This document shows positions 21,219 through 49,484 of a stretch of DNA of 64,000 bases, piece by piece (within the stretch, counting starts at the first letter, position 1; every line of letters begins with the position of its first letter). The translations under genes were made by a program, and so were the position numbers. The stretch is from Candidatus Aminicenantales bacterium (lineage in GTDB: Bacteria > Acidobacteriota > Aminicenantia > Aminicenantales > Saccharicenantaceae), in assembly GCA_049512315.1 (NCBI GenBank), contig JBEKXF010000005.1:1-64000 (forward strand), in the 5' to 3' direction. A model generated the notes under the pieces. That model ran no database searches. It was not told the origin of the DNA and was given only the letters and a program-made list of their open reading frames with translations.

Positions 21219-23624
21219 CTACTTGACCGCAACCTCGTAGAGCGAGATGCTGACGGGGGGCACGGTCACCTTCTTCCCGAACGGCGCGCCGTCCTTCTCC
21301 TCGATGACGACGGCCGGGGGCTTCCCGGGTTCGTTGTAGAGCTGCGGGTCGCCGCCCGCGATCAGGTAAAGGTTCGCCGTGCTCGCCAGCCGGAGTGTCC
21401 CGAAGTCGAGCTTGACCGTTTGTCCCGTCCTCGTCGGGTTGATGATCGAGACCGTCATGACCTTTTTCGCGTCGTCCTTCCAGCAAGCCATGACGTCGAG
21501 CGGCTCGGCCGCGCCCTCGACCTCGACCGGGACCGTCCCGAAATGGCTCCGGTAGAGCTTGAGGACCAGTCCGGTCGTGTCGAACGCGGCGGCGGTCCTC
21601 GTCGTCTTGATGGCCCCGATAACGTTCACGGTCTGGGCGTAGTTGGCCATGACGTAGATATCGCTCTGGCGGGCGTACTCGTTAAACCCCTCCGCGATCC
21701 CCAGGGCGTCCTTCAGGAAGTAGCGGACCCCGATCTCGCCGTAGAGGTCGGGCCCGTACCAGTAGTTCCACTCGTCGAGGGCGACGGGGACCTCCTTCAG
21801 CTTGAGCGTCGGGATGGCCTGCCGGTATTTCCGGTGGGCCTCGGCGATCCTCCGGACCTCGCGCGGAACCTGGTCGACGTGGCTCAGCAGCCCCGGCTTC
21901 TCGCCGACATAGAAATGCTCGCTCAGATAATCCATGTGGTTCGAGGCCTCGGCGAGCATGGTCTCATCCCACCTTCCCACCGCGCCCACGGCCACGATCT
22001 TGATCGACGGGTCCACGGCCTTCATGGCCACCTCGAACTGGATGTGCTTCCGGACGTAGTCGTAGAGAGTAATGTGGCCGAGCTGCCAGCTTCCGTACAT
22101 TTCGTTCCCGACCGACCAGAGCTTGACGCCCCAGGGCTCGGGATGGCCGTTCGCGGCCCGGAGCTTGCCCATCGGGGAATCGGCCGGGCCGTTGTTCGCG
22201 TACTGGAGCTCCTCGACGGCCATCTTCACGTCGCCCAGGCCGCTGTTGACCGTGATGTAGGGGTCGGCGCCCAGGATGCGCATAAGGTCCATGTACTCGT
22301 GGATACCCACGTCGTTGTGCTCGACGCCCTGCCAGGCCGGGTTCTTGCGCGGCGGCCGCTTGTCGCGCTCGCCAATCCCGTCCCGCCAGTTGTAGCCGCT
22401 GGCGAAATTTCCGCCGGGCCAGCGGTAGACGGGGGAATCCAGCTCCTTGAGCAGGCCCAGGACCTCGGGGCGGAAGCCGTCGACGTTCAACGCCGGCATG
22501 ACCGAGACCGCGCCGACCTTGAATGAGCCGCGGCCCGCGGACACGATCTCGAGCCGGGCGTTTTCCGTCGAGGCGCCGGCCGTGAAGACGAAGGGGAAGG
22601 TCTTGTATTCGGGGCCGAGGTCCTTGATCTCGATAACCTGCCTATTCCCGGGCTCCGGGCCCCAGGCGAGGCTGACCTTGACGGGCGCCGCGGCCCGCTC
22701 GCCGGCCAGGACCACGCGGCCGACGTATTCCCGCCCCTCGACGAGGGCCAGCGCTTCCTGGAAAAGTCCGCCGGCTGTTTTTCCGGTGAGGGCGATCCGT
22801 GGCGTGTGCCCGCCCGTGAACGGCTTGGCTTTATCCATCGTGACCAGGGCCGCGTCGCCGACCGGTTTCCAGGGCGACTCGCCCTGGCCCACGGGCCAGA
22901 AGAATTTGCGGTCCTCGAGCATCTCCGCCCAGATGCCCTGATAGATACAGCGGCCGAGGTGCTCGATGAACTGGCCGTAGATGTATTTGGAAACGGGAGC
23001 GCCCGTTTTTTCGGCGTTGATCCTGACGGCCGGCGGGGCCAGCTCGCCCCCCGAGAGCCAGGTCAGCTCGACGTCGTCGAACCAGGCCTTGCCCGTCGCT
23101 TTGCCCCAGCCGCCGAAGAGGCAGGTCACCTCGAGGGCGTCGTTGGCGCCGGCGTCGAGCTCGACCTCGACCCGGGTCCAGTCTTTCGTGCCGCTGACGG
23201 CGGGCGTCTGCCATTGCCGGACGCCGTTAATGTTGATGACGGCGCCCTTGGACGTGCCCGGGACGAGGTTTTCCGTCCGGATCCAGCCGCTGAGCCTGTA
23301 GCGGGCGTAAGGCCTGATGGGGACGACCGCGACCCAAGACGCGTCGGCGCCCTTTTCGGAGCCGATCATGACCGAGCGGTTCCCCGTGCGGCCGGCCGGC
23401 TCGACCTTGAAGACCGCTTCCGCTTCCCAAATGCGAGGCTCCCAGCCCTTCGGATGATCCCCGGCCATCTCTTCGAAGGACGGGTTGGCGACGAACTGGG
23501 TTTTGCCGGCAAATTCGTCCGCCATACTGGAAGGGCCGGACTTGCAGGCCGCGAAAATAAGAACAAGTCCGGGAACGACAAAAAACATCGTTGCCAACCG
23601 ATGGGACGTGCGGGGCATGCTCAT
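21219..23624 (-). CDS. GH51 alpha-L-arabinofuranosidase with N-terminal CBM4/9-like domain, lipoprotein
   Basis: YGQFIEHLGRCIY, RWPGGNF, WSVGNE (acid/base), ALDEWN (nucleophile), ANYAQTVN; NPSFE CBM start; lipobox FAAC. Confidence 0.92.
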   Translation of the reverse strand: MSMPRTSHRLATMFFVVPGLVLIFAACKSGPSSMADEFAGKTQFVANPSFEEMAGDHPKGWEPRIWEAEAVFKVEPAGRTGNRSVMIGSEKGADASWVAVVPIRPYARYRLSGWIRTENLVPGTSKGAVININGVRQWQTPAVSGTKDWTRVEVELDAGANDALEVTCLFGGWGKATGKAWFDDVELTWLSGGELAPPAVRINAEKTGAPVSKYIYGQFIEHLGRCIYQGIWAEMLEDRKFFWPVGQGESPWKPVGDAALVTMDKAKPFTGGHTPRIALTGKTAGGLFQEALALVEGREYVGRVVLAGERAAAPVKVSLAWGPEPGNRQVIEIKDLGPEYKTFPFVFTAGASTENARLEIVSAGRGSFKVGAVSVMPALNVDGFRPEVLGLLKELDSPVYRWPGGNFASGYNWRDGIGERDKRPPRKNPAWQGVEHNDVGIHEYMDLMRILGADPYITVNSGLGDVKMAVEELQYANNGPADSPMGKLRAANGHPEPWGVKLWSVGNEMYGSWQLGHITLYDYVRKHIQFEVAMKAVDPSIKIVAVGAVGRWDETMLAEASNHMDYLSEHFYVGEKPGLLSHVDQVPREVRRIAEAHRKYRQAIPTLKLKEVPVALDEWNYWYGPDLYGEIGVRYFLKDALGIAEGFNEYARQSDIYVMANYAQTVNVIGAIKTTRTAAAFDTTGLVLKLYRSHFGTVPVEVEGAAEPLDVMACWKDDAKKVMTVSIINPTRTGQTVKLDFGTLRLASTANLYLIAGGDPQLYNEPGKPPAVVIEEKDGAPFGKKVTVPPVSISLYEVAVK

Positions 23625-23823
23625 CACTCCTCCTTTGCTGTTCGGCCGAATCGGCCGCCGGCGAGGCGGTTCGCGGTCGGGGACGGGACGGGCGGGGCCG
23701 ATGGGAGGGACTTTACACCGGCCTCCTGATGTCTGTCAACGCTCCTCGGGGCGGCGCTTTTTCCTACGAATCGCCTGGCCGCCGCCAGGAGCGACCCCCA
23801 TTCGACCCGCTAAGATCGGAGGG

Positions 23824-24117
23824 CTAGAGGCGGCCCCGCGGTATGGGCGGGGCCTCGCTTTCCGAGCCGACATTCCTCAGCTCTTCCCGGATGACCCTAC
23901 GCAGCACCGACTCGAGGGGTTCCCCGCCCTGGTTCAGGTAATCCCTGAGGGCGTTATTGATCATGGTCTGGTAATTGCCGCCACCCTTCGCTTCGACCTG
24001 GGAGCGGAACCAGTCGATGATCTCGCTATCCAGCCGGATGGTGATCCTGGTTTTGCCGGCTGACGAGGCGTCATTTGCCCCCTCCAGTCCAAGCTCCTTT
24101 TTTTTGTTACTCTTCAT
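23824..24117 (-). CDS. BrnA-family antitoxin (RHH)
   Basis: KTRITIRLDSEIIDWFR..GGNYQTMINNALRDY; AAGGAGGT SD upstream of the ATG at 24117. Confidence 0.85.
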   Translation of the reverse strand: MKSNKKKELGLEGANDASSAGKTRITIRLDSEIIDWFRSQVEAKGGGNYQTMINNALRDYLNQGGEPLESVLRRVIREELRNVGSESEAPPIPRGRL

Positions 24118-24317: not shown

Positions 24318-26831
24318 CTATTTGATTTTCCACTCGTGGACGCCGGCGGACCATTTTTCCTGCATCCGGACTTCGAGCCGCAGGGCCGTTGTCCGGACCA
24401 GCGCGAACCTCACCGTGTTCCAGGCGTCTTTCGCCACGCCATAGCTTCCTGCGCCGGCCACCGGCAGCCACTTGTCCCCCGCCTTGTAGACGATCCGCCA
24501 TGACGCCGGGACGCGGCACTCGCCACCGCCCGTATCGTCGAACCAGTACACGGACGCTTCAGAAACCCGGACCGGTTCCTTGAACGCGTACTCGACCCAC
24601 TCGGCCGTTCCCTTCTTCGGCCACCAGTGCATGTATCCCGCGGCATCGTCGGACCCTTCGGGGACGTATTCGTCATTGATGCCCTTCAGGCCTTTCGCCC
24701 CTTCAGAGGCCGTGACGGTCGCCTTGGCCGAGAGCCCGGGTTCAGCCGCGACCCTGGCCTTCGCCGGTTCGCGGGCAATCCAGACTTCCATCTCGCCCCG
24801 GCCCCGGTTGGCCCACGCGAAGTACGGGATCAGCGTGATTGCCTTCTTCTCGATGACGGCCTGTCCGCCCTTCTCGCTCACGGCTTCCGCCTCGCCCTTG
24901 ACGACCACGACCCCGTCGAGGAGGTCCGGCCGCGTCTCGGCGGCCAGGGCCGCGCCGTCCGGAAGGACGAAGTTCGACACCCGGCCGCCGTTGTCCGCCC
25001 CTTCGGCGCAATAAACGAACGGCCCGCGCTCGACCGCGATCCGGCCGAGGTCGGCTTCGACCTTGTCGTTGGCGACGACCCGCCGGACGGGCATGGGGAG
25101 CTTGACCTCGACGACATCTCCCGCCTGCCAGGTCCTGTTGATCAGGACATAGCCCTTTTGGAGGACGAGGTCGACGGGCTCGCCGTTGAGCTTGACCTCG
25201 GGGAGCTCGACGTCCTTCACGAGGGGCAAGGGCATGACCTCGGCCTCCGCGCCTTTCGCCTCGGCCGCGGGCGTTCCTGCCGGGTTGTCCGCATACCTGT
25301 AAAGGTCGGAGGGGATGGGCCTGCCGAGCGCCCAGCCGGGGATCCGGATGTACAGGGTAAGCGCCGCCGGCTTGGCCGGTTTGACCTCGATCCTGACGTC
25401 CCCCTTCCAGGGGTATTCCGTCGTCTGAACGATATCGAGCTTCGCCTTTCCGGCCGTGATCGTTCCGGTCCCCTGGGCGTAAAGATTCACATAGACCTTG
25501 TCGCCGTCGGCCGCGTACACGTACCCGGGGACGGAGGCCAGGACCCGGGCCACATTCGGGGGGCAGCAGGCGCAGCTGAACCAGGCCACGCGCGCGTGCT
25601 GGCCGAAGGACGCCAGCGGGTTGGGATAGAAGAAGCGGTCCCCGGAGAGCGAGATCCCGGAGAGGACGCCGTTATAGAGGATGCGCTCCATGACGTCAAC
25701 GTACTTGGCGTCCTCCTCGAGGCGAAACATCCGTGAGTTCCAGAGGAAGGTGGCGATGTTGGCGCAGGTCTCGGCGTAGGCGCTGGCGTTCGGCAGCCGG
25801 TAGGCCGGGCCGTAGCCCTCCCAGCCGCCGGCCGCGCCGATGCCGCCCGTGAGATAGATCTTCGTCCCGGCGACGTCGGCCCAGATCTTGTCGAGGGCCG
25901 CGAGGTAGGCCTTGTCCCCTGTGAGGGCGGCGACATCGGCCGCGCCCGCGTAGAGATACCCGGCCCGGACGGCGTGCCCCACGGCCTGCGTTTGCTCGAC
26001 GAAGGGCTTGTGGTCCTGGGAATATTCGCCGTAGAGGAGGCTTTTCCCGGACTCCCCCTGATCAGGGAGGCGCCCCTCGGTCCTGCCGCGGGCGTCGATG
26101 AAGAACTTGGCCAGGTCGAGGTATTTCATCTTGCCCGTGGCCCGGTAGAGCTTGACCAGACCGATCTCGATCTCCTCGTGGCCCGGCGGGTTCCTCCGCT
26201 TGCCGGGGCCGAACTCCCGGGCGACGAGATCGGCACTTTTCATGGCGATGTTCAGGAGGCTCGTCTTCCCGGTGGCCTGGTGGTGGGCGACCGCGGCCTC
26301 GTAGAGATGGCCGAGGTTGTAGAGCTCGTGGCTCATGGCGAGGTGCGACCAGCGTTCCTTCCCCAGCCAATCGACGGGAGGCGGGCCGCCGATCGTCCGG
26401 ACCGTGTAGAGGTAGCCGTCCGGCTCCTGGGCCGCGGCGATCCTGTCGATGATTCCGTCGACACGCTTGTCGAGCTCGGGGTCGGAGCGAGTGGCCATCG
26501 CGTAGGAGGCCGCCTCGATAGTTTTATAGACATCGGAGTCGTCGAACGGGTAGCGGGTGCAGAACTTGAGGTCCGCGGCGCCGGCGAGGGCGTCCTTGGC
26601 CAGGTCGAAGTTCTTGAGGCGGCCCGTCTCCTCGTTCTCCTTGAGGATGTGCGGGATCGTCACGGCCCGGTTGGTCTCGAGACGCGGCGCCCAGAAAACG
26701 TCCGTGAGATGGACGTCCGCGAAGGGCACCGGTTTCACGGGATAATCGGCCTTCGGGGCCTGGGCACACGTCAGCGAAAAGGCGAGGGCCAGGGTTAGGA
26801 GCAGGACCCTGGCCGGGATTCCGTTTCTCAT
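24318..26831 (-). CDS. GH127 beta-L-arabinofuranosidase with C-terminal F5/8 (discoidin/CBM32-like) domain, paralog 2
   Basis: FDDSDVYK, HELYN, GHEE, GHAVR, EGYG, YAETCA, ACCPPN; tail WVEYAF..VYWFDD..CRVPASW..EWKI. Confidence 0.92.
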   Translation of the reverse strand: MRNGIPARVLLLTLALAFSLTCAQAPKADYPVKPVPFADVHLTDVFWAPRLETNRAVTIPHILKENEETGRLKNFDLAKDALAGAADLKFCTRYPFDDSDVYKTIEAASYAMATRSDPELDKRVDGIIDRIAAAQEPDGYLYTVRTIGGPPPVDWLGKERWSHLAMSHELYNLGHLYEAAVAHHQATGKTSLLNIAMKSADLVAREFGPGKRRNPPGHEEIEIGLVKLYRATGKMKYLDLAKFFIDARGRTEGRLPDQGESGKSLLYGEYSQDHKPFVEQTQAVGHAVRAGYLYAGAADVAALTGDKAYLAALDKIWADVAGTKIYLTGGIGAAGGWEGYGPAYRLPNASAYAETCANIATFLWNSRMFRLEEDAKYVDVMERILYNGVLSGISLSGDRFFYPNPLASFGQHARVAWFSCACCPPNVARVLASVPGYVYAADGDKVYVNLYAQGTGTITAGKAKLDIVQTTEYPWKGDVRIEVKPAKPAALTLYIRIPGWALGRPIPSDLYRYADNPAGTPAAEAKGAEAEVMPLPLVKDVELPEVKLNGEPVDLVLQKGYVLINRTWQAGDVVEVKLPMPVRRVVANDKVEADLGRIAVERGPFVYCAEGADNGGRVSNFVLPDGAALAAETRPDLLDGVVVVKGEAEAVSEKGGQAVIEKKAITLIPYFAWANRGRGEMEVWIAREPAKARVAAEPGLSAKATVTASEGAKGLKGINDEYVPEGSDDAAGYMHWWPKKGTAEWVEYAFKEPVRVSEASVYWFDDTGGGECRVPASWRIVYKAGDKWLPVAGAGSYGVAKDAWNTVRFALVRTTALRLEVRMQEKWSAGVHEWKIK

Positions 26832-26991: not shown

Positions 26992-29007
26992 TTATTTGCG
27001 GGGCAGCCAGACGGCCATTTCGCCGTGCCCGCGGTGGGCCCAGGCGTAATACGGGATGGCCAGGAAAGGCCGGCTCCGGGGGGAAGCGCGGCCGCCCGGA
27101 TCGCCGGGGACGTCCGCCGCCTCCCCTTTGACAACGACAATACCGTTGAGGAGGTCCGGCTGGAACTCCGCCCGGAGCGGCCGGTCGTCCGGCAGGACCA
27201 GGTTGAGGGCGTGTCCGCCGTTGTCGGGCCACTCGGCACAGTAGACGATCGGGCCCCTGACGAGGGCGACCCTGCCGGCGTCGTCCTTGACGGCCTCGTT
27301 CGCGACCACGCGCCGGACCGGCATAGCTAGGGCGAGCTCGATGACGTCGCCCTTCTTCCACTCCCGGCGGATCCTGGCGTAGCCCTTGTCCAGGGTGATC
27401 ACGACGGCCTCCCCGTTGACCTTGAGCGACAACTTCCCCTTCGGGTCGTCGATGAAGCGATAGAGATCGCCCGGCACCGCCTCGCCCCGGGCCCAGCCCG
27501 GGATGCGGACGAGGAGCGTCCAGACCGCCTTCCCTTCGGGCTCGACCGTGATCCTGATGGCACCATCCCAGGGATAGCGAGTCTCCTGTCTGAGCCTGAC
27601 CTTCCGGCCCCCGACATCGGCCGTGCCCTCGCCCTGGACGAAGAGGTTGACATAGAACGAGTCGTTCTTCACGGCGTACACATATCCGGGGAACGAAGGG
27701 ATGAGCCGGCTGATGTTGCCCGGGCAGCAGGCCGTCTCGAAGAACGGCGCCCGGCCGAGCAGGCCCTGGTTGAACCGGAACTTTCCGTCGGACTCGAGCG
27801 GGTTGGCGTAAAAAAACTCCCGGCCGTCGAGCGAAACGCCCGAAAGGACCCCGTTGTAAACGACCTTCTCCATGACGTCGACATAACGGGCGTCGCCCGT
27901 GAGGAGGAACATCCGCTGGTTCCACAAGGCCATCCCGATCGAGGCGCAGGTCTCGAGATACCCCGTCAGGTTGGGAAGCTCGTAGTTTTCGCCGAAACGC
28001 TCGCGGTCGTGGCGGGAACCGACCCCGCCGGTGAGATACATCTTTTTTTCGACCACGTTTCTCCAGAGCCGGCCGACGGCCCCGAGATAGGCCGCGTCGC
28101 CGGAGATCGCGGCGATGTCGGCCATGCCCGCGGCCATGTACGTGAGGCGCACGGCGTGGCCGGCGGCCTCGTCCTGCTCGAGGACGGGCTTATGGGCCTG
28201 GATCTGCTCCGGCTGGTTATAGATGGAGAAGCGGCTGCCCGGAGGATACTGGGTCAGCTTGACCTCCCGGCCGCGCTGGTCCAGAAAATATTTAGCCAGG
28301 GCGAGGTACTTTTCGTCGCCCGTCACGCGGAAGAGCTTGACGAGGGCCAGCTCGATCTCCTGGTGGCCGGGGAAGCCGTGCCTTTTCCCGGGGCCGAAGG
28401 TCGCCGCGACGAGGTCGGCGTTCCTGATCGCCACGTCGAGGAGCGAGCGCTTCCCCGTCGCGAGGTAATGGGCGACGGCCGCTTCATAGAGGTGGCCGGC
28501 GTTGTAGAGCTCGTGGCTTATGGCCTCCTCCACCCAGCGCTCGGGGCCGATCCCGGGCTGCGGATGGGACGGGTCGCACGTCCGGGCCGTGAAAAGGTAT
28601 CCGTCCGGCTCCTGGGCGGCGGCGATCTTGACGATCATGGCGTCCAAGGCCCGGTCGAGCTCCGGGTCGGGATGGACCATAAGCGAATACGACGCGCCCT
28701 CGATCGGCTTGTAGACGTCCGTGTCGTTGTAGCGCTCGCCCCTGTACTTTCCTTTTATCAGCCCGCCGGCGATGGCGAAATTGTCCAGACGGCCCGTCTC
28801 CTCGTTTTTCTTTAACAGGAAGGGAAGGGTCACGACCCGGTTCGTCTCGATCCGGGGAAGCCAGAAGGCGTCGGCCACCTGGACTTGCGTGAACGGCACC
28901 GGCGTGATGGGATAGTCCTTTTTTTCGCTCGAGATGCTCAGGGCTGGGGTGACGAAGAAGAACAGAGAGGCTAGGAATACGCCAGATAGCGAGTTACCCA
29001 TGCTCAT
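26992..29007 (-). CDS. GH127 beta-L-arabinofuranosidase (secreted), paralog 3
   Basis: YNDTDVYK, HELYN, GHQE, GHAVR, ERFG, YLETCA, ACCPGN. Confidence 0.92.
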   Translation of the reverse strand: MSMGNSLSGVFLASLFFFVTPALSISSEKKDYPITPVPFTQVQVADAFWLPRIETNRVVTLPFLLKKNEETGRLDNFAIAGGLIKGKYRGERYNDTDVYKPIEGASYSLMVHPDPELDRALDAMIVKIAAAQEPDGYLFTARTCDPSHPQPGIGPERWVEEAISHELYNAGHLYEAAVAHYLATGKRSLLDVAIRNADLVAATFGPGKRHGFPGHQEIELALVKLFRVTGDEKYLALAKYFLDQRGREVKLTQYPPGSRFSIYNQPEQIQAHKPVLEQDEAAGHAVRLTYMAAGMADIAAISGDAAYLGAVGRLWRNVVEKKMYLTGGVGSRHDRERFGENYELPNLTGYLETCASIGMALWNQRMFLLTGDARYVDVMEKVVYNGVLSGVSLDGREFFYANPLESDGKFRFNQGLLGRAPFFETACCPGNISRLIPSFPGYVYAVKNDSFYVNLFVQGEGTADVGGRKVRLRQETRYPWDGAIRITVEPEGKAVWTLLVRIPGWARGEAVPGDLYRFIDDPKGKLSLKVNGEAVVITLDKGYARIRREWKKGDVIELALAMPVRRVVANEAVKDDAGRVALVRGPIVYCAEWPDNGGHALNLVLPDDRPLRAEFQPDLLNGIVVVKGEAADVPGDPGGRASPRSRPFLAIPYYAWAHRGHGEMAVWLPRK

Positions 29008-29075: not shown

Positions 29076-31811
29076 TTACTTGATCTCGACCGGCACGGGG
29101 CCGACGGTCCAGCCCTGACGTCCCCGAATGACAGCCTTTTTCGCGAGCTTCCGGCCCCCGACCTCGAGGGTCACCATGTACTCACCCGGGTCCACGAGCT
29201 GCCCCCCGGAATACCCCTCATAGCCCTCCTGCCGCTGGCCGGGCCGCTCCACCCGCATGGACCAGGCGACGCTATTGAGCCCGGCCTCGCCCTTGCCCGT
29301 GAGCTCGGCCAGGAGCTTGCCATAGGGGTCGGCGACCGTGATCTTAACCGGCCCGGCCGCCTTCGCCTTCAGATAATAGCTGATCCTGACCTCGTTGGGC
29401 TCGTTCGGCGTCGAGAGGTGGCTGTCGCCGAGGAGCTGGTAGTTGCCGATTCCGCCGTAGACCCGCTCCGTCCGGGGCTTGATGTCGAAGAGATGGACGT
29501 CCTCTGTGAGCGTCGCCTCGCCCAGCTCCTGGAGCGGCGAGATGTCCGTGACCCACAGGCTGCGGCCGAAGGTCGCCACAACGAGGTCGTTCTCGCGGGG
29601 GTGGATGAGGAGGTCCGTGACCTTGAGCCAGGGCATATTGGCCTTAAACGGGGCCCAGGTCCTGCCGCCGTCGAGCGTCGCGTACACGCCCTGCTCGGTC
29701 CCGACGAAGAGAAGCCCGGCGTTTTTCCGGTCCTGGATGACGACGTTGATCGGCTTCCCGGCCGGGAGGTCGCCCGCGATGGACGTCCAGGTCTCGCCGT
29801 AATCCGTGGTCTTGCAGAGGACAGGTTCGAACTTGTCGAACCGCAGTCCCGTCTTGGCGACGAAACACGTCCCGGCGTCGTGCGGCGAGGGGAAGACACG
29901 GCTGACCCAGAAGTTCTCGGGCGCGCCGGCCGCCGCGAGCTTCGCCGTCCGGTCGAGCCAGGTCGCGCCGCCGTCTTTCGTCATCTGGACCTTGCCGTCG
30001 TCGGCCCCGGTCCAAATGACGCCCGGCTTGACCGGCGACTCGCCGATCGTCGTGAGCGTGCAGTAGGAGATATTGCCCTCGCCGTGCTCCTTGGAGTCGT
30101 CGTTCGTCGTCAGGTCGGGGCTGATCTCCTCCCAATGGTCGCCCCGGTCGAGGGAGCGGAAGAGGACCTGAGCCCCGGCGTAGAGGATGGCCGGATTATG
30201 CGGCGAGAGATGGAGGGGCGGTGTCCAGTTGAAGCGGAGCGGCCTGTCCCCCGCGGCCCGCCTCGGCCGGATGTCGGTCTGGAAGCCGCTCTTCTGGTCC
30301 AGGCGCCACATGTCCCCGAACTCGCGGTTGTTGTAGACCCAGCGGCTGTCCGCCGGGTCGATCTGGTTGTACATGCCGTCGCCGACGCCGACCGTCACCC
30401 AGTCGGAGAGGCTGACCTCGCCGGCCCAGCCGTTCGACGGGCCCTTCCAGGAGTCGTGATCCTGCAGCCCGCCGTAAATGTTGTACGGGTCTTCCATGTC
30501 CACGCCGACGGCATAGAACTCGCCGCCGGGAATGTTGGCGAAATGGTGGCAGGTCCGGCCACGGTCATAGGAGATGTAGGTGCCGCCATCGCTGCCGAAG
30601 ATCAGCCGGCCCGAGTCGGCCGGGTCAACCCAGAGCGTCCGCCAGTCGCCGAAACCCCGGTCGAAAACGCCGTTCGACGGCCAGCTCAGCCCCTTCCACG
30701 TCTTGCCGCCGTCATTCGTGCTGGCCAGCGACTGGGCCGTGATGTAGACCGTATCGGGGTCCTGCTGGTCCAGGCGGAGCATGTTGAACGAGTAGGGGGC
30801 CTTGTCGAGCGCGGCTTCATAGCCCTTGTTGGCTTTCCGCCAGGACCGGCCGCCGTCGTCCGTGCGGAAGACCTCGTTCCCAAACGTTCGAAGGCGCGGC
30901 GCGACGTCGCGTCGCTTGTCCTGCTCGAGCTCCTGGGGATTCGCCGGCCGCGGGTTGCCGTTCTCGACGATGGCGTAGAGGATGTCGGGGTTTTTCTGGA
31001 AGACATCGAGCCCGATCCGGCCGACGCGCCCCGAAGGCAGGCCGCCGCTGAGGCGAGACCAAGTCCTGCCACCGTCGGTCGTCTTGTAGATCCCGCTCTC
31101 GGGCCCACCCATCTCGTAATTCCAGGGCAGGCGGACCTGGTCGTACATCGCGGCGTAGAGGGTGTCGGGGGCCGACTGGACGAGCATCAGGTCCACGGCG
31201 CCGATCTTATCATTGACGTACAGGATTTTTTGCCAGGTCCGGCCGCCGTCGGTCGTCTTGAAGACGCCCCGCTCGACGTTGGTCGAGAAGAGGTGGCCCA
31301 TCGCGGCGACATAGACAATATCGGGGTTCCCCGGATGGATCATGATCCGGGCGATGTGGTGCGAATCGCGGAGGCCCATGTTCGTCCAGGTCTTGCCGGC
31401 GTCGACGGACTTGTAGATCCCGTCGCCGGACGTCGACATCCGGGTGCAAAAGGCGTCCCCGGTCCCGACCCAGACGATGTTCGCGTCCGAGGGAGCGACG
31501 GCGATGTCGCCCATGGAGAGCTTCTCCTGGGCGTCGAAGACGGGCTCGAAGGTGACGCCGTTGTTCGTCGTCTTCCAGACGCCGCCGTTCCGCATCCCGA
31601 CGTAGATGGTGTAAAGGTGCTCCCGCGCCGGAGCCGCCGGGACGGCGATCGCCGACACCCACGAGCCCGCCCGGAAGGGGCCGAGGTTGCGATAGGGGAA
31701 GCTCTTGAGAAGGTCCCCGGCGGACCGCTCCTCCGCGACGGCCGCGGAGCCGACCGCCAGGAGAGCGATCAAGGTCCATGAAAAAAGTCTTTCGGGCGGA
31801 CGGGTCTTCAT
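29076..31811 (-). CDS. Secreted BNR/Asp-box beta-propeller (VPS10/sortilin-like) putative hydrolase
   Basis: Many (K/R)(T/S)xDGG.TW Asp-boxes; GGVWKTTN, IYGGLQDH, RFNWTPP, VVATFGRSLW. Confidence 0.85.
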   Translation of the reverse strand: MKTRPPERLFSWTLIALLAVGSAAVAEERSAGDLLKSFPYRNLGPFRAGSWVSAIAVPAAPAREHLYTIYVGMRNGGVWKTTNNGVTFEPVFDAQEKLSMGDIAVAPSDANIVWVGTGDAFCTRMSTSGDGIYKSVDAGKTWTNMGLRDSHHIARIMIHPGNPDIVYVAAMGHLFSTNVERGVFKTTDGGRTWQKILYVNDKIGAVDLMLVQSAPDTLYAAMYDQVRLPWNYEMGGPESGIYKTTDGGRTWSRLSGGLPSGRVGRIGLDVFQKNPDILYAIVENGNPRPANPQELEQDKRRDVAPRLRTFGNEVFRTDDGGRSWRKANKGYEAALDKAPYSFNMLRLDQQDPDTVYITAQSLASTNDGGKTWKGLSWPSNGVFDRGFGDWRTLWVDPADSGRLIFGSDGGTYISYDRGRTCHHFANIPGGEFYAVGVDMEDPYNIYGGLQDHDSWKGPSNGWAGEVSLSDWVTVGVGDGMYNQIDPADSRWVYNNREFGDMWRLDQKSGFQTDIRPRRAAGDRPLRFNWTPPLHLSPHNPAILYAGAQVLFRSLDRGDHWEEISPDLTTNDDSKEHGEGNISYCTLTTIGESPVKPGVIWTGADDGKVQMTKDGGATWLDRTAKLAAAGAPENFWVSRVFPSPHDAGTCFVAKTGLRFDKFEPVLCKTTDYGETWTSIAGDLPAGKPINVVIQDRKNAGLLFVGTEQGVYATLDGGRTWAPFKANMPWLKVTDLLIHPRENDLVVATFGRSLWVTDISPLQELGEATLTEDVHLFDIKPRTERVYGGIGNYQLLGDSHLSTPNEPNEVRISYYLKAKAAGPVKITVADPYGKLLAELTGKGEAGLNSVAWSMRVERPGQRQEGYEGYSGGQLVDPGEYMVTLEVGGRKLAKKAVIRGRQGWTVGPVPVEIK

Positions 31812-31894
31812 GAGTCCTCCCGTGGTTTCCGAAATTTCCCGGCGATAATCATCGCATTTATTGGCCCCGGGCCTGAAATATTATATATCAAAAA

Positions 31895-33778: not shown

Positions 33779-33780
33779 CC

Positions 33781-42059: not shown

Positions 42060-44423
42060 TCAGATCTCCTGGTGCTCGGTGCGGCGGATGATCTCGTCCT
42101 GGAGCTCGGTGCTGCAGTCGACGAAGTAATCGCTGAAACCGGCCACGCGGACGATGAGATCCCGGTGCTTTTCGGGGAATTTTTGCGCTTCCCTCAGCGT
42201 GTCGGCCGTGACGACGTTGAACTGGATGTGGTGGCCCATCAGCCGGAAATACGATCGGACCAGGTCCTTGACCCCGGCCAGTCCGGTGTCGCCGGCGAGG
42301 AGCTGAGGCGTGAATTTCTGGTTAAGGAGCGTCCCGCCCGTCCTCACGTGGTCCATCTTGCCGAGCGACTTGATGACCGCCGTCGGCCCCTTCCGGTCGG
42401 CCCCCTGAACGGGCGACACGCCTTCGGAAACCGCGTCCCCGGCCAGCCGCCCGTCCGCCGTCGCGCCCGTGACCTTGCCGAAATAGACGTGGACCGTGGT
42501 CGGCAGGAGGTTGATCCTGTACTTGCCTCCCCTCGGCGTGGGCCGGCCGTCGACGGCCTCGAAATAGGCCTCGAAGACCTGCCTCATGAGATTGTCGGCA
42601 TAGTCGTCGTCGTTCCCGAACTTCGGCGTCCGGTTGAGGACGCGCTGGCGCAGGCTTTCGGACCCTTCAAAGTTCTTGGCCAAGGCCGTCAGCAATTCCT
42701 TCATCGTGAAGTGCCCGTGGTCATAGACGTTGAACCTGATGGCGCTCAGGACGTCGGTGATCGTCCCCATGCCGACGCCCTGGATATAGTTCGTGTTGTA
42801 GCGGGCGCCACCGGCGTGGTAGTCTTTTCCGTTCTTGATGCAGTCGTCGACGAGAATGGACAGGAAAGGCGCGGGCAGATAGGTCGCATAGAGCCTCTCG
42901 ATGACGTTGCTCCCCCGCACTTTGATGTCCGCGAAGTGCCGAATCTGCTTCCGGAAGGCCTCGAAGAGCTCATCGAAGGTCTTGAACGCCAGCGGGTCGC
43001 CGGTTTCGAGGCCGATCCTCTTCCCCGTCCTGGGGTCGAGGCCGTTGTTGAGGGAGATCTCGAAGACCTTGGGCAGGTTGAAATACCCCGTCAGAATATA
43101 GGCCTCCTTGCCGAAGGCCCCGGACTCGACGCAGCCGCTGGCCCCACCGTTCCGGGCGTCCTGGACGCTTTTTCCCTGGCGGACGAGCTCCTGGACGATG
43201 GCATCCGTGTTGAAGATCGAGGGCTGGCCGAACCCGGTCTTGACGATCCGCAGGGCCCGGAGAAGGAACGCATCCGGCCCCTTGGCGCTGATCTGGACCA
43301 TGGAGCTCGGCTGGAGGATGCGCATCTCCTCGATGACGTCGAGGATGAGGTAGGACAGATCGTTGACGCCGTCCGTTCCGTCTTCCTTCAGCCCGCCGAG
43401 GTTGATCAGGGCAAAATCAGTGTAAGTCCCGCTCTCCTCCGCCGTGACGCCGACCTTGGGGGGCGAGGGCTGGTTATTGAACTTGACCCAGAAGGCCTGG
43501 AGGAGCTCCCGGGCGCTTTCTTTCGTCAGCGTTCCGTCGGCGAGCCCCTTCTGGTAGAACGGCCAGAGGTGCTGGTCGAGCCGCCCCGGGTTGAAGGAGT
43601 CCCAGGTGTTGTATTCGGTGATGACGCCCAGGTGGACGAACCAGTAATACTGGAGGGCCTCCCAGAAGTCGCGCGGCGCGTGGGCCGGCACCCATTCGCA
43701 GACCTCGGCGATCCTCTCGAGCTCTTTCCTGCGGGCCGGGTCCTTCTCCGCGGCCGCGAGAGCCCTCGCCTTTTCGGCGTGCCGCCTGGCGAAAGCGATG
43801 ATCGCGTCCGCGCCGACGAGCATGGCTCTGAGCTCCTCCTGCTTGTCATAGGCCTCGGGGTCGTTCATGAAATCGAGGCCGCTCAGGGCGGTTTCGATAT
43901 CCTTCTTGAAGTCGAGCATGCCTTTCCGGTAGATCTTGCCGTCGAGGACGGTGTGGCCCGGTGCCCGCTGTTCCATGAACTCGGTAAAGACGCCGGCCTC
44001 GTAGGCGTCGATCCATTCCGGCGTCATCGCGGCGAAGATCCGCTCGCGCTGGGACCGGCCCTGCCAGGACGGGATGATCTCCTCCGCGTACAGCCGTCTC
44101 GTCTCATCATCCGAGGCGAAAGCCGTCTTTTTCCTGTCGTTGAGGTAGCGGAGGTCCTGGAGGGAATGGATGCAGACCTCGGGGTAGGTCGGCGTCGCCT
44201 TGGGGGCCGGGCCGCGCTCGCCGACGATGAGCTCGCTCTCGTTGAAGACGACGGCCTTGTGCTCCATGATGTGCTTGAAGGCCAGGGCGTGCCGCATGGC
44301 ATATGAGGCGTTCCTGGCCTCGGGCGTCTTGTAGAACTCCGTGAGAAGCTTGGCCCTTTCGACGCTGATCGTGGGCCGGGCGTCGAGCGTCTGCTGTCTC
44401 AGCTTCTTGATCCGTTCGTTCAT
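42060..44423 (-). CDS. hypD: Glycyl radical enzyme trans-4-hydroxy-L-proline dehydratase
   Basis: FTEFMEQRAPGHTV, WDSFNPGRLDQHL, ESGTYTDF, GGASGCVE, AYILTGY, LPTT, RVAGFS. These match the C. difficile HypD active-site set as recalled (H160, D278, S334, D339, F340, C434, E436, Y450, T645); ~787 aa. Confidence 0.9.
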   Translation of the reverse strand: MNERIKKLRQQTLDARPTISVERAKLLTEFYKTPEARNASYAMRHALAFKHIMEHKAVVFNESELIVGERGPAPKATPTYPEVCIHSLQDLRYLNDRKKTAFASDDETRRLYAEEIIPSWQGRSQRERIFAAMTPEWIDAYEAGVFTEFMEQRAPGHTVLDGKIYRKGMLDFKKDIETALSGLDFMNDPEAYDKQEELRAMLVGADAIIAFARRHAEKARALAAAEKDPARRKELERIAEVCEWVPAHAPRDFWEALQYYWFVHLGVITEYNTWDSFNPGRLDQHLWPFYQKGLADGTLTKESARELLQAFWVKFNNQPSPPKVGVTAEESGTYTDFALINLGGLKEDGTDGVNDLSYLILDVIEEMRILQPSSMVQISAKGPDAFLLRALRIVKTGFGQPSIFNTDAIVQELVRQGKSVQDARNGGASGCVESGAFGKEAYILTGYFNLPKVFEISLNNGLDPRTGKRIGLETGDPLAFKTFDELFEAFRKQIRHFADIKVRGSNVIERLYATYLPAPFLSILVDDCIKNGKDYHAGGARYNTNYIQGVGMGTITDVLSAIRFNVYDHGHFTMKELLTALAKNFEGSESLRQRVLNRTPKFGNDDDYADNLMRQVFEAYFEAVDGRPTPRGGKYRINLLPTTVHVYFGKVTGATADGRLAGDAVSEGVSPVQGADRKGPTAVIKSLGKMDHVRTGGTLLNQKFTPQLLAGDTGLAGVKDLVRSYFRLMGHHIQFNVVTADTLREAQKFPEKHRDLIVRVAGFSDYFVDCSTELQDEIIRRTEHQEI

Positions 44424-44425
44424 GG

Positions 44426-45331
44426 TCATCCTCCCCTTTGGACGTCGAAGCCCGCGCCGCGGAAGGCCGCTTCGATCGCGGCCAACCTCTCCTCGGAGGG
44501 GGCTTCAAAGGTCTTGAGACAGGACTCCTTGCCGAGCCGCCGGGCTTTCTCGTTCCCGCCGGAATGGTAAGGCAGGAGTCCGATATTCTTGATCTTCTTG
44601 AGGGACTTGAGAAAAGAGATGGTCCCGTCGATGTTCTTGTCGTCATCATTGACGCCGGCCATGAGCGGGATCCGGACCCAGACCTCGGTCCCGTTCGCGG
44701 CCAGGCGTTTGAGGTTCTCCAGGATGGGCCCGTTCGAGCTCCCGGTCAGCTCACGATGTTTCGCCTCGTCCATGACCTTGAGGTCGTAGAGGACGAGATC
44801 GGCCTTGGCCGCGATCTTCTCCAGGAGCGGGGCCGGCGTGAACCCGCAGATGTCGACGGCCGTGCGGATGCCCCGGCTCCGGAGCGCGCCGAGGAGCTCT
44901 TCAAGGAAGGCCGGCTGGGCCAGCGGGTCGCCGCCGGAGAACGTCGCCCCGCCGCCGGACTGTTCGTAAAAGATCCGGTCCCTCTCGATCTCCGCGACGA
45001 GGCCCTCAACCGCCATCTCGCGGCCGACGACCTGCATGGCGTCGTAAAGGCAGGCCTCGGCGCACTTGCCGCAAAGGTCGCACTTTTTCTTGTCGACGGC
45101 GACGGCCCCGTCCGCTGCCTTGGAAATGGCCCCGGGCGGGCAGGCGGCGAGGCAGGCATAGCAGCGGGAGCAGCGCGACGGCCAATGCATGAGCTCGGGG
45201 GCCTGGTCGATCCCCTCCGGGTTGTGGCACCAGAGGCAGCGCAGAGGACAGCCTTTGAGAAAAACGGTCGTCCGGATGCCCGGCCCGTCGTGGATCGAGT
45301 ATCGTTTGATGTCGAAAATTCGTCCGGTCAT
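44426..45331 (-). CDS. Glycyl-radical enzyme activating radical SAM protein (HypD activase)
   Basis: HDGPGIRTTVFLKGCPLRCLWCHNPE, ferredoxin insert CSRCYAC..C / CDLCGKC..C, SGGDP, LLPYH. Confidence 0.93.
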   Translation of the reverse strand: MTGRIFDIKRYSIHDGPGIRTTVFLKGCPLRCLWCHNPEGIDQAPELMHWPSRCSRCYACLAACPPGAISKAADGAVAVDKKKCDLCGKCAEACLYDAMQVVGREMAVEGLVAEIERDRIFYEQSGGGATFSGGDPLAQPAFLEELLGALRSRGIRTAVDICGFTPAPLLEKIAAKADLVLYDLKVMDEAKHRELTGSSNGPILENLKRLAANGTEVWVRIPLMAGVNDDDKNIDGTISFLKSLKKIKNIGLLPYHSGGNEKARRLGKESCLKTFEAPSEERLAAIEAAFRGAGFDVQRGG

Positions 45332-45408: not shown

Positions 45409-45444
45409 CTGATTGTAATATATCAGATATCAGACGAAAATCAA
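45409..45444 (-). promoter_or_regulatory. Promoter with repeated TATCAGA boxes upstream of the activase-hypD operon
   Basis: Minus strand TTGATT-N16-TATATT with extended TGn; tandem TATCAGA x2 (45421-45434) and inverted CTGAT (45409-45413). Confidence 0.55.
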
Positions 45445-45663: not shown

Positions 45664-47070
45664 ATGGACGATCGTCCGGCCTACAACATGCGCTACATCT
45701 GGCTGACGACTCTGGTCTCGGCCATGGGAGGCCTGCTCTTCGGCTACGATTGGGTGGTCATCGGCGGCGCCAAGCCCTTCTACGAAAAATTCTTCAACCT
45801 GACGACCCCGTCGGAGATCGGCTGGGCCATGAGCAGCGCCCTTGTCGGCTGCCTCCTCGGGTCCCTCGTTTCCGGGGCGCTCAGCGACCGGTTCGGCCGG
45901 AAGAAGCTCCTGATCCTTTCCGGCCTCCTGTTCACGGCGACCGGCATCCTGACCGCCCTGGCCCCGGATTTCACGTTCTTCGTCGTGAACCGGATCCTCG
46001 GCGGCATCGCCATCGGCCTGGCCTCGAACCTCTCCCCCATGTACATCGCCGAGATCTCGCCGGCCGAGGTCCGGGGGAAGTTCGTTTCGGTCAACCAGCT
46101 GACGATCGTCATCGGCATTCTCGCCGCCCAGCTGGTGAATTGGCTCATCGCCAGGCCGGTCACGGCCGGGGCCACCGCGGCCGAGATCCTTGGCTCCTGG
46201 AACGGTCAGGTCGGCTGGCGCTGGATGTTCGGGGCCGAGGCCGTGCCCGCCTTCTTCTTCTTTCTCCTGATGTTCACGGTCCCGGAGAGTCCGCGCTGGT
46301 TGGCCAAGAACGGCCGCGGCGGCGAGGCCGAAAAAGTCCTGGCCAAGGTCGGCGGCGCCGGTTTCGCAGGGAAGGCCATGGCCGAGATCCGCGGGACCCT
46401 CGCCGAGGCCGACGTCCAGAAGGTCCGCTTCCGCGCCCTCCTCGAGCCGGGCATGTCCAAGGTCCTTCTCATCGGGATCGTCCTGGCCGTCTACCAGCAG
46501 TGGTGCGGCATCAACGTCATTTTCTACTACGCCGAGGAGATCTTCTCGGCCGCCGGCTACGGCGTGAGCGACATCCTCTTCAACATCGTCATCACCGGCA
46601 CGGTCAACCTGATCTTCACCCTGGTCGCCATCCGGCTCGTGGACAGGCTCGGAAGGAAACCGCTGATGACGGCCGGGTCGGCGGGCCTGGCCGTGACCTT
46701 CGGGCTCATCGGCGCGAGCTACGCCGTCCACAGCCGGGGCCTTCATCTTCTCATCCTGGTCGTCCTCTCCATGGCGCTCTACGCGCTATCCCTGGCGCCC
46801 GTCACCTGGGTCCTTCTCTCGGAGATCTTCCCGAACCGGATCCGTGGCGCGGCCATGTCGGTCTCGACCTTCTCGCTCTGGTCGGCCTGCTTCGTCCTGA
46901 CCTACACGTTCCCCCATCTCAACAAGGGGCTCGGACCGGCCGGGACTTTCTGGATCTATGCCGGGATCAGCGTCTTCGGGTTCGTCTTCATCCGGAAGCG
47001 CCTCACGGAAACCAAGGGGAAGACCCTCGAGCGGATCGAGCACGAGCTCGTCGAAAAACGGCCGGCGTAG
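45664..47070 (+). CDS. Sugar porter family MFS transporter (XylE/AraE-like)
   Basis: GGLLFGYD, DRFGRKK, YIAEISP..RG, PESPRWL, QQWCGINVIFYYA, DRLGRK, SEIFP..RG, ETKGKTLE. Confidence 0.93.
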   Translation: MDDRPAYNMRYIWLTTLVSAMGGLLFGYDWVVIGGAKPFYEKFFNLTTPSEIGWAMSSALVGCLLGSLVSGALSDRFGRKKLLILSGLLFTATGILTALAPDFTFFVVNRILGGIAIGLASNLSPMYIAEISPAEVRGKFVSVNQLTIVIGILAAQLVNWLIARPVTAGATAAEILGSWNGQVGWRWMFGAEAVPAFFFFLLMFTVPESPRWLAKNGRGGEAEKVLAKVGGAGFAGKAMAEIRGTLAEADVQKVRFRALLEPGMSKVLLIGIVLAVYQQWCGINVIFYYAEEIFSAAGYGVSDILFNIVITGTVNLIFTLVAIRLVDRLGRKPLMTAGSAGLAVTFGLIGASYAVHSRGLHLLILVVLSMALYALSLAPVTWVLLSEIFPNRIRGAAMSVSTFSLWSACFVLTYTFPHLNKGLGPAGTFWIYAGISVFGFVFIRKRLTETKGKTLERIEHELVEKRPA

Positions 47071-48310: not shown

Positions 48311-48320
48311 CCGACCCTGC

Positions 48321-49484
48321 CTATTTCACGGAAAATTTGTGCACTGTGAGGGTTGTGTACTTTTCCCCGGGTTTAAGGATCGTCGAAGGGAAGTTCGGGT
48401 GGTTCGGCGAATCGGGGAAGTGCTGCGTCTCGAGGCAGAAGCCGAAGTGCTTTTGGTAGGCAACGCCGCCCTTGCCCTTGACCGTCCCGTCGAGGAAATT
48501 TCCGGAGTAGAGCTGGATGCCCGGCTGGTCCGTGGAGATCTCGAGGACCCTGCCGCTCGCGGGCTCGTAGACCCTGGCCGCGAGAGCCATCTTCCCACCG
48601 CCGCTCCTGAGGACGAAGTTGTGGTCGTAGCCGCCCTCGACCTGGGCGATCCGCTCGCCGATCGCGTGCGGCGATGTGAAATCGAAGGGCGTCCCTTTCA
48701 CCCCCAGGATCCGTCCCGTCGGGATGAGGTTGGCCGCGGAATCGACCGCCGTGAGGGCGTCGGTTTCGAGCTCGAGTTCGTGACCAAGAATGTCGCCCTG
48801 GCCCTGGCCGGCCAGGTTCCAGTAGGCGTGGTTCGTCAGGTTGACGGGCGTCGCCTTGTCCGTCGTCGCCTCATAGCTGATCCTGAGTTCGTCGGTGTCG
48901 GTCAGCGTGTAGACGACCGTGACGGCCAGGTTCCCGGGATAACCCTCCTCCATGTCCTTGCTGACGTAAGTAAGCTTGACGCCGACGGCGCCCGCGTCCC
49001 GGACGGGCTCGCCCTTCCAGACGACCTTGTCGAATCCCTTGAGGCCGCCGTGAAGGCTGTTGCCGTTGTTGTTCTGGGCCAGGGCGTAGGTCACGCCGTT
49101 GAGGGTGAACCGGCCCTTGGCAACGCGATTTGCGTATCGCCCGACAATGGCCCCGAAGTAGGGATGCGCGCCGAGATAACCGGCGAGATCATCGAAGCCG
49201 AGGACCACGTCCTCCAACTTCCCCTTCCGGTCGGGAAGCCGGAGCGAGACGAGGATCGCGCCGTAGGTCATGATCCGGGCCTCGATGCCGTGTGCATTCG
49301 TCAGGGTGTAGATGTCGACCGCGGTGCCGTCGGGAAGCCGTCCGAACGGTTCGTGTTTCACGGGCATGCTGGTTTCTCCTTTCGTCGGGGCGGCCGCCGC
49401 CCGGGTTTTGTCTCCGTTCTGGCACGCGGACGCCGCCATGCCGACGGCAACGCAGAGGATGACGGCCAGAAATTTCTTGTCCAT
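48321..49484 (-). CDS. galM: Aldose 1-epimerase (mutarotase) with lipoprotein signal
   Basis: GRYANR, LHGG, NLTNHAYWNL, YDHN, QLYSGN, CLETQ; N-terminal lipobox AASAC. Confidence 0.9.
   Translation of the reverse strand: MDKKFLAVILCVAVGMAASACQNGDKTRAAAAPTKGETSMPVKHEPFGRLPDGTAVDIYTLTNAHGIEARIMTYGAILVSLRLPDRKGKLEDVVLGFDDLAGYLGAHPYFGAIVGRYANRVAKGRFTLNGVTYALAQNNNGNSLHGGLKGFDKVVWKGEPVRDAGAVGVKLTYVSKDMEEGYPGNLAVTVVYTLTDTDELRISYEATTDKATPVNLTNHAYWNLAGQGQGDILGHELELETDALTAVDSAANLIPTGRILGVKGTPFDFTSPHAIGERIAQVEGGYDHNFVLRSGGGKMALAARVYEPASGRVLEISTDQPGIQLYSGNFLDGTVKGKGGVAYQKHFGFCLETQHFPDSPNHPNFPSTILKPGEKYTTLTVHKFSVK

Follow-up and report, generated by a model that had tools for sequence, protein, structure and literature searches.

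The stretch of DNA described here, referred to as the window, is 64,000 bases long and corresponds to positions 1-64000 of contig C5 in an Aminicenantes metagenome-assembled genome (G000; 3.55 Mb, 96.6% complete, 64% G+C). Judged by its sequence, the glycyl radical enzyme (GRE) encoded in the window is a true trans-4-hydroxy-L-proline dehydratase, HypD. An L-arabinose catabolic operon is found 8 kb from its gene, and genes for exported GH127 and GH51 enzymes are found at 13-21 kb. It is proposed that the hypD, ara and GH127/GH51 units may form one loosely organised programme for the use of hydroxyproline-rich glycoproteins (HRGPs), tied together by a GntR-type regulator; the chances that this is correct appear to us evenly balanced.

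Hydroxyproline (Hyp) is abundant in the cell walls of plants and algae and is almost always glycosylated. How anaerobes gain access to glycosylated Hyp is called an open question in one passage of PMC6219649, where it is also suggested that HRGPs may supply gut microbes with both carbohydrates and amino acids, and where Hyp-releasing enzymes are described as an open challenge. The use of extensin by GH127 enzymes has been predicted in Latescibacteria, in a passage of PMC4454575 in which HypD plays no part. An earlier note on this DNA had presented the linkage of sugar and aglycone use in one pathway as new. In the literature searched there was no publication that combines a hydroxyproline dehydratase with an arabinofuranosidase, but the concept itself had been floated in the passage on HRGPs (PMC6219649). 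Five papers that bring up Aminicenantes as well as glycyl radical enzymes are, by their titles, about hydrocarbons.

The analysis drew on G000, two sister genomes (G001 and G002) and a sample of 101 genomes of the order, grouped in families f1-f9. Genes in the window were called from Pfam and NCBIfam matches and from the pattern of G+C at codon positions. HypD neighbourhoods of ±19 kb in 30 relatives (17 from f1-f3 and 13 from f4-f9) were compared with all 46 window genes, and the comparison was widened to the best 80 HypD loci across many phyla and to a 301-genome sample of Acidobacteriota. The genes that the earlier note had listed, namely those for the GH127 and GH51 enzymes, araB-araD-isomerase, sugar porter, GalM, S15 hydrolase, GRE and activase, were all found by Pfam and NCBIfam at or close to where it had placed them.

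HypD and its activating enzyme

42060..44429, minus strand: HypD, trans-4-hydroxy-L-proline dehydratase (glycyl radical enzyme); NF043068, 1290.5 bits against a cut-off of 1100
44426..45331, minus strand: HypD activating enzyme (radical SAM); NF043069, 370 bits (cut-off of 425 not reached); TIGR02494, 351 bits against 174

The GRE passes the equivalog cut-off for HypD, with PFL2-3 as the next-best NCBIfam family at 673 bits, and it matches PDB entry 6vxc at 1060 bits. In a column-by-column alignment with 6vxc (chain numbering offset by 20), all 15 functional residues, taken from the list in the relevant part of PMC7077986, are identical. These comprise the glycyl radical and Cys-loop motifs RVAG (Gly765) and GCVE (Cys434, Val435, Glu436), the substrate and acid/base residues His160, Asp278, Asp339, Ser334, Phe340, Tyr450 and Thr645, and also Phe152, Arg156, Trp277 and Lys326. 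The active-site motifs on which the earlier note had based its assignment are thus borne out, and HypD is the sole GRE of its family in G000.

The best family for the neighbouring radical SAM protein is the T4HPD activase, and its gene overlaps hypD by 4 bases. The protein passes the cut-off for the subfamily of radical SAM GRE activases but misses that of the equivalog. The activase-hypD operon is divergent from the sugar porter gene, as had been described, with 332 bases between them.

A fucose/1,2-propanediol route, composed of a FucI-like isomerase, an FGGY kinase, a class II aldolase, an alcohol dehydrogenase and a GRE diol dehydratase, was considered for the same set of genes. It was rejected because the kinase scores as a ribulokinase rather than as FucK, the aldolase-fold enzyme as AraD rather than as FucA, and the GRE as HypD rather than as a diol dehydratase.

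The GntR regulator and the hypD promoter element

45414..45434, minus strand: 21-base A+T-rich element, predicted operator of the GntR/FCD regulator; overlaps the -10 region of the activase-hypD promoter
31873..31891, no strand assigned: A+T-rich inverted repeat resembling the hypD element, in the BNR/araB divergent promoter region; 2 mismatches of 14
29076..31811, minus strand: BNR/Sortilin tandem beta-propeller of 911 residues (Pfam), heading the BNR-GH127c-GH127b unit
Contig C23:5353-6054, divergent from the GH146-like gene: GntR/FCD regulator gene, 55-58% identical to orthologues
Contig C23:220-2172, divergent from the GntR gene: GH146-like arabinofuranosidase gene; best PDB match 5opj

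The upstream regions of the activase gene have a 21-base element in common in 19 of 31 relatives, two of the 31 regions being cut by contig ends. When searched for with a weight matrix, this element is recovered in 28 of 30 relatives at the head of the unit, be it activase-hypD or GntR-activase-hypD, and the copy at 45414-45434 is the unique top match in G000 (43 bits, the next scoring 25). Which protein might bind it? A GntR/FCD regulator is found as a single-copy orthologue in 93 of the 101 relatives; by coordinates, 20 genomes of f4-f9 have its gene right beside activase-hypD and in the same orientation. This regulator is predicted to bind the hypD promoter element.

In G000, the regulator gene follows that of a 1000-residue exported protein, with the GH146-like gene beyond, and the same is true of G001 and G002. 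The sister genomes are colinear over hypD, araBDA, BNR-GH127c-GH127b-GH51, GH127a, Metallophos, GH146, the 1000-residue protein and GntR. Because this colinearity spans the gap between the two G000 contigs, C23 very probably abuts the start of the window, which would place GntR about 48 kb from hypD by synteny. The ara/GH127 cluster lies between GntR and hypD in all three genomes, and the order GntR, GH127, araB, hypD also occurs over 20-45 kb in genus g7 and family f2 (with GH127 among the matches listed). A different arrangement is encountered in genus g20 of family f6 (G079 and G092), where GntR comes fourth in an operon with araB, araD and the isomerase gene, after a 45-base gap; hypD-activase is on another contig and keeps its promoter element. 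It appears that the regulator of hypD came to lie with arabinose genes at least twice, in g20 and in the genus of G000.

The 1000-residue exported protein (C23:2247-5249), between the GH146-like gene and GntR, is conserved in that position in G001 and G002. It has no Pfam or PDB match, and only an Atlas lead points to a Melibiase or alpha-galactosidase-like protein.

What else might the regulator control? The inverted repeat at 31873-31891, which precedes the start codon of the BNR gene by 62-80 bases, is about seventh in rank among the matches in G000. Better copies are found in the same araB/BNR intergenic place in G001 and G002. In G002, the best match genome-wide is at the hypD promoter, with no mismatch, and the second-best is between araB and BNR, with 1 mismatch of 17; there are 6 matches at up to 3 mismatches, against 1 for a reversed control. 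In G073 the best genome-wide match precedes the gene of a BNR orthologue (54% identity), which shares its operon with a downstream gene of the S9 prolyl-oligopeptidase family, and in G079 and G092 sites with 2 mismatches precede a BNR paralogue. Further sites in g20 are located ahead of a three-gene unit ending in an SSF symporter, beside M14 and S9 peptidase genes (L199, G079:C4; L203, G092:C147), and ahead of an M14 carboxypeptidase pair (L201, G079:C15). These symporter and M14 units are candidate members of the regulon, and the symporter is a candidate carrier of Hyp or peptides.

The BNR protein, missing from the gene list of the earlier note, may belong to the same programme. An orthologue with 56% identity is encoded directly upstream of GntR-activase-HypD at locus L052, and in G061 and at the Gemmatimonadota locus L099 hypD has a more distantly related BNR gene as its immediate neighbour. 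The structural model (pLDDT 76.6) has its best fold matches among GH74 xyloglucanases, with TM scores of 0.58-0.61 by target at 15-16% identity; phmmer gave no sequence-level match to the GH74 chains in the PDB.

Propellers of this BNR/Sortilin family, 800-1100 residues long, recur beside hypD operons or downstream of sites resembling the hypD element (L052, L099, L142, L200, L202).

The chief alternative to a common programme is that the window holds two independent modules, which are neighbours by inherited gene order. One would strip arabinan, arabinogalactan or arabinoxyloglucan and use the arabinose; the other would be a housekeeping unit for Hyp-containing peptides, fed by Xaa-Pro peptidases. 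The two relocations of the hypD regulator, into the araBDA operon in g20 and to the side of the GH146-like gene in the genus of G000, argue against this alternative, and so do the element look-alikes ahead of BNR genes in three genera and the BNR orthologue that adjoins the hypD operon in L052. Conversely, the further g20 sites precede peptidase and symporter genes and not sugar genes, and the GH74-like fold of the BNR protein is also in keeping with independent modules.

Arabinosidases

1339..3432, minus strand: GH127a, exported; three Pfam GH127 domains; 6ex6, 707 bits, and HypBA1 (3wkw), 336 bits; signal peptide
24318..26831, minus strand: GH127b, with a C-terminal extra domain; three GH127 domains; 6ex6, 665 bits, and 3wkw, 349 bits; signal peptide
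26992..29007, minus strand: GH127c; three GH127 domains; signal peptide
21219..23627, minus strand: GH51-type alpha-L-arabinofuranosidase; Alpha-L-AF_C; residues 380-703 match GH51 structures (3s2c, 249 bits)

All three GH127 proteins of the window contain PF07944, PF20736 and PF20737 (catalytic, middle and C domains), and a signal peptide is read in each, which agrees with their earlier description as secreted enzymes. The GH51-type enzyme has an N-terminal extension of about 370 residues. It had been described as a lipoprotein together with GalM; both have lipobox-like N-termini, and the GH51-type enzyme finds its best PDB matches among GH51 arabinofuranosidases. More generally, export signals are predicted on the GH127 proteins, the GH51-type enzyme, the BNR protein, the S15 hydrolase and GalM, with none on HypD or the ara enzymes.

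In HypBA1, Glu322 and Cys417 are the acid/base and the nucleophile, respectively. When GH127c is compared with 3wkw, positions 322, 338, 340, 417, 418, 142, 145, 194 and 273 are all conserved, that is, Glu322, the zinc ligands Glu338, Cys340, Cys417 and Cys418, and the -1 subsite residues His142, Tyr145, His194 and Arg273. The subsite residues of HypBA1 are those listed in a part of PMC10850190, where HypBA1 is described as cleaving Araf-beta1,2-Ara.

What, then, are the substrates of GH127a-c? The PDB entry closest to them is 6ex6, which is probably BT3674. According to the passage concerned in PMC10850190, BT3674 (GH127) works with galactanases on larch arabinogalactan. By sequence, the specificity of GH127a-c would not be readable from their closeness to 6ex6 and 4qjy.

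Arabinose catabolism and transport

32072..33778, plus strand: araB, ribulokinase; NF003154, 675 bits against a cut-off of 428
33709..34485, plus strand: araD, L-ribulose-5-phosphate 4-epimerase; NF006047, 327 bits against a cut-off of 257
34500..35960, plus strand: FucI_C-type isomerase; Fucose_iso_C (Pfam); start approximate
45664..47070, plus strand: major facilitator superfamily (MFS) sugar porter, XylE/AraE-like; Sugar_tr, 371 bits; TIGR00879, 352 bits against a cut-off of 238
48321..49502, minus strand: GalM, aldose 1-epimerase; Aldose_epim, 342 bits; lipoprotein-like signal

The araB-araD-isomerase unit that had been proposed is present, with the ribulokinase and AraD scoring above their cut-offs; the isomerase is there as well, but it is of the FucI_C type and not a canonical AraA. 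The family match of AraD begins at residue 25, and the true start of araD is probably near 33781. Which enzyme isomerises L-arabinose? There is no AraA_N match anywhere in G000, and the FucI_C-type gene follows araB-araD across the order, including G079. For these two reasons the gene is predicted, from its position only, to encode a non-canonical, non-orthologous L-arabinose isomerase. No PDB relative of it was found.

Just upstream of the sugar porter, a palindrome at 45562-45586 (perfect 5+5 with a 15-base spacer) is conserved in G001, G002, G012 and G021. It is unique in the window, with no tie to the ara or GH promoters, and is probably the porter's own operator. GalM is probably periplasmic or surface-bound, which is unusual for GalM. 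Apart from the 13 f1-f3 genomes counted below, GalM is near HypD in G073 and at loci L047/L048.

Is the linkage of hypD to arabinose genes conserved?

HypD is found in 99 of the 101 genomes of the order (above the cut-off in 83, the rest being cut by contig ends), GH127-family genes in 101 of 101 (among the matches listed, 150 of 350) and ribulokinase in 84 of 101. The earlier note had proposed co-localisation of hypD, GH127 and araBD across relatives as a check. In f1-f3 the linkage is seen: 36 genomes have HypD and araB on one contig, 2.9-40 kb apart in 35 of them (713 kb in G053). It breaks down in f4-f9. For the 17 HypD neighbourhoods of f1-f3 (±19 kb), the window genes retained are as follows.

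Zn-dependent dehydrogenase: 14 of 17, the most persistent neighbour of HypD
GalM: 13 of 17, and 1 of the 13 other genomes
TPR protein: 12 of 17
Acyl-ACP thioesterase: 12 of 17
araB: 10 of 17
araD: 8 of 17
Isomerase: 8 of 17
Sugar porter: 7 of 17
Any one GH127: at most 5 of 17
S15 hydrolase: 2 of 17

Several observations weigh against a common programme, and most of them concern this linkage. HypD is near ara/GH127 genes in three of the nine families only. The TPR and acyl-ACP thioesterase genes, which are unrelated to either process, are kept near HypD at least as often as araB or GH127. In the 13 f4-f9 neighbourhoods none of the ara/GH window genes is kept near HypD, GalM being the only one retained, once; HypD and araB share a contig in two f4-f9 genomes, at distances of 1.6 Mb (G063) and 0.9 Mb (G075). 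Since unrelated genes are conserved equally and the linkage is confined to f1-f3, the proximity of HypD to the ara and GH127 genes is, by itself, to be read as ordinary family-level synteny. The looseness of the linkage, of which the earlier note had warned, is evident.

Beyond the order the picture is similar. Among the best 80 HypD loci, drawn from many phyla, there is none with a GH127 gene within 10 kb of HypD, and those with ara genes are from Aminicenantes only; distant FGGY and FucI-like genes are found at L072, a locus from Acidobacteriota. In the Acidobacteriota sample, 60 of 301 genomes have HypD. Outside the order, 27 of the 49 HypD-positive genomes have no GH127 and 22 have one; a GH127 gene is on the HypD contig in three of these genomes, 0.99 Mb, 0.78 Mb and 27.7 kb (G311) away, and in none within 10 kb.

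The operon structure of f4-f9 points in the same direction. Seven of nine annotated f4-f9 genomes have the order GntR(FCD)-activase-HypD-M24 Xaa-Pro peptidase, with S9, S8, M16 or C69 peptidases nearby. The arabinosidases are also less like extensin enzymes than the proposal would lead one to expect: GH127a-c rank 6ex6 (665-710 bits) ahead of 4qjy and of HypBA1 3wkw (336-374 bits), and in the part of PMC10850190 that deals with it the Araf-beta1-Hyp bond is cut by GH146 enzymes (XeHypBA1, Bll4HypBA1) and not by GH127.

The element look-alikes call for similar caution. Ten sites in G000 match the palindromic form with no more than 2 mismatches of 14. Besides the one at 31873-31891, eight were examined; they adjoin unrelated genes (resolvase, SDR/GH10, YfhO-like, PadR, arginase, OmpA-like and kinase genes) or lie in a stretch without called open reading frames (ORFs), and were taken as chance occurrences. 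No copy of the element is found by the GntR gene on C23 of G000, upstream of araB in G079 or G092, or at L052, where the BNR orthologue adjoins the hypD operon; L099, L061 and L072 likewise have none. About 10 BNR paralogues are encoded in G000, so some of the BNR adjacencies may be due to chance.

How does the alternative of two independent modules fare? In its favour are the ancestral-looking GntR-activase-HypD-M24 arrangement with other peptidases nearby, an ara/GH linkage confined to f1-f3 and no better than that of unrelated genes, GH127 enzymes that resemble 6ex6 and a Geobacillus enzyme more than HypBA1, and the HypD-positive genomes outside the order that often lack GH127. The regulator and BNR associations set out above speak against it. 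We regard independent modules as a serious contender, with a probability somewhat short of even.

Fate of pyrroline-5-carboxylate and supply of hydroxyproline

37463..38584, plus strand: Zn-dependent dehydrogenase of the medium-chain dehydrogenase/reductase (MDR) family (Pfam, NCBIfam)

The product of HypD is pyrroline-5-carboxylate (P5C). Searches of G000 for canonical proC, proA, proline dehydrogenase (putA-type) and proline racemase gave no match, and no Hyp or peptide importer is present in it. Both the missing proC and the missing importer count against the proposal, and the earlier idea of a complete use of arabinosyl-Hyp goes beyond the evidence. Within the order, proC scores above the cut-off in one of 101 genomes, against 99 of 101 for HypD. 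Such a near-universal HypD with a near-absent proC raises the question of the fate of P5C and of the source of proline. An ornithine cyclodeaminase/mu-crystallin (OCD) family protein, with its gene on contig C34, and a generic aldehyde dehydrogenase, both encoded elsewhere in G000, could process P5C.

A third explanation is that the coupling is metabolic: pentose fermentation would have Hyp as its redox partner, a reductase such as the Zn-dependent dehydrogenase would act on P5C, and the two substrates could come from separate polymers. The persistence of this dehydrogenase near HypD in f1-f3, its direct adjacency to it in G009, G076, G098 and G011, and the scarcity of canonical proC in G000 and its relatives are consistent with this idea. 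However, the dehydrogenase is absent from the f4-f9 hypD operons, the OCD-family and aldehyde dehydrogenase genes offer another outlet for P5C, and no MDR-family P5C reductase is known. On balance, metabolic coupling seems highly improbable.

Proposed programme for the use of hydroxyproline-rich glycoproteins

If the hypD, ara and arabinosidase units do form one programme, it might operate as follows. Both alpha- and beta-L-arabinofuranosides would be removed from glycoproteins of the extensin or arabinogalactan-protein type by the exported GH51 and GH127 enzymes, together with the GH146-like enzyme encoded nearby, and the same glycoprotein polymer would be the substrate or ligand of the BNR propeller. 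Arabinose would enter by the MFS sugar porter, be anomerised by GalM and pass through the isomerase, AraB and AraD to the pentose phosphate pathway. Hyp would be freed by M24 Xaa-Pro and S9 peptidases, whose genes lie elsewhere, and perhaps by the S15 hydrolase of the window; it would then enter by a carrier and be dehydrated by HypD to P5C. The GntR/FCD regulator would bind the hypD promoter element and, more weakly, the BNR-GH127 promoter.

This scheme modifies the earlier proposal of one arabinoside-stripping programme that feeds on both Hyp and arabinose. What favours it is the association of GntR with ara genes and the element look-alikes at BNR genes; the linkage between the genes is weak evidence, and the GH127 enzymes are nearer to 6ex6 and 4qjy than to HypBA1. 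In a bolder version, one GntR-governed HRGP regulon would unite HypD with prolyl peptidases, a sodium symporter, beta-L-arabinofuranosidases and GH74-like BNR propellers, the last being a novel kind of enzyme or binding protein for the glycoprotein backbone; since the lineage lacks ProC, P5C would pass to an undescribed reductase, possibly the Zn-dependent dehydrogenase. We think this version unlikely.

Should the programme exist, a link of this kind across the lineage would name candidates for the missing steps of HRGP use: GH127, GH146, the BNR propeller, the S9, M24 and S15 peptidases and the SSF symporter. It would also supply a regulator and its operator for tests in vitro, and it would give the ubiquitous, uncultured Aminicenantes a role in degrading cell-wall glycoproteins in anoxic sediments.

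Layout and other features of the window

39589..41583, plus strand: S15/CocE-NonD family hydrolase, exported; TIGR00976, 266 bits against a cut-off of 66; convergent with hypD

On the minus strand, the genes run in the order BNR/Sortilin, GH127c, GH127b, a BrnA-like ORF, GH51-type enzyme, aldo-keto reductase and Amidohydro_2 protein. The BNR-GH127c-GH127b unit is divergent from araB-araD-isomerase. After the isomerase come a terpene-synthase-like ORF (minus strand), the Zn-dependent dehydrogenase, OsmC, the S15 hydrolase and the activase-hypD operon (minus strand); opposite the latter, the plus strand carries the sugar porter, SpoIIM and glyoxalase, followed by GalM (minus strand). The presence of unrelated genes among the others had been noted earlier, and the terpene-synthase-like ORF, OsmC, SpoIIM, glyoxalase and the BrnA-like ORF are indeed interspersed and are not assigned to any pathway. 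No Rfam family reaches its gathering score in the window.

Three features stand apart from the subjects discussed so far. The ORF at 36119-37396 (minus strand; 425 residues) has no family match and contains two Asp-rich motifs that recall class I terpenoid synthases; it sits between the isomerase and dehydrogenase genes in the genus of G000 only, with a distant copy in G009. The ORF at 23824-24255 (minus strand), whose C-terminal half resembles a BrnA-type antitoxin, fills the 690-base gap between GH127b and GH51 and may separate GH51 from the upstream operon. A TonB-dependent receptor is found in two adjoining minus-strand ORFs (plug, 55018-55962; barrel, 53812-55017), which could reflect a frameshift, a sequencing error or a split gene.

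Comparison with known systems

A known relative of the window enzyme is the HypD/HypD-AE pair of Clostridioides difficile (PDB 6VXC/6VXE; described in parts of PMC7077986 and PMC6219649). The two systems have the same enzyme family, the same active-site residues and an adjacent activase. In contrast to C. difficile, G000 has no proC next to hypD or genome-wide, its hypD is surrounded by sugar genes and not by proC or genes of the Stickland type, and the hypD promoter of Aminicenantales has a conserved element associated with a GntR/FCD regulator.

Extensin-degrading systems are known from Bifidobacterium longum (HypBA2 of GH121, HypBA1 of GH127, Bll4HypBA1 of GH146, and HypAA) and from Xanthomonas (XeHypBA1 of GH146), as described in parts of PMC10850190. 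Like these, G000 has several exported cysteine glycosidases of the GH127/GH146 type with conserved zinc-binding and nucleophile residues. Its GH127a-c are closer to 6ex6 and 4qjy than to B. longum HypBA1, and the B. longum and Xanthomonas systems have, as described there, no link to any Hyp-degrading enzyme.

The BNR protein shares with the GH74 xyloglucanases (2cn3, 6p2n) a tandem seven-bladed propeller, as suggested by its structural model (Foldseek E 1e-27, TM 0.59 by target). It differs from them in its low identity of 15-16% and in the company its gene keeps: GH127, S9 peptidase and hypD genes rather than genes for the use of xyloglucan.

A further comparison is with the GntR-activase-HypD-M24 operons of f4-f9, in which HypD, activase, regulator and promoter element are orthologous to those in the family of G000. 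Whereas these genes form one operon in f4-f9, the unit is split in the family of G000: the orthologue of the M24 peptidase in G000 is on another contig, C1, and the regulator lies some 30-48 kb from hypD beside the GH146-like gene, with the arabinoside and arabinose genes between them.

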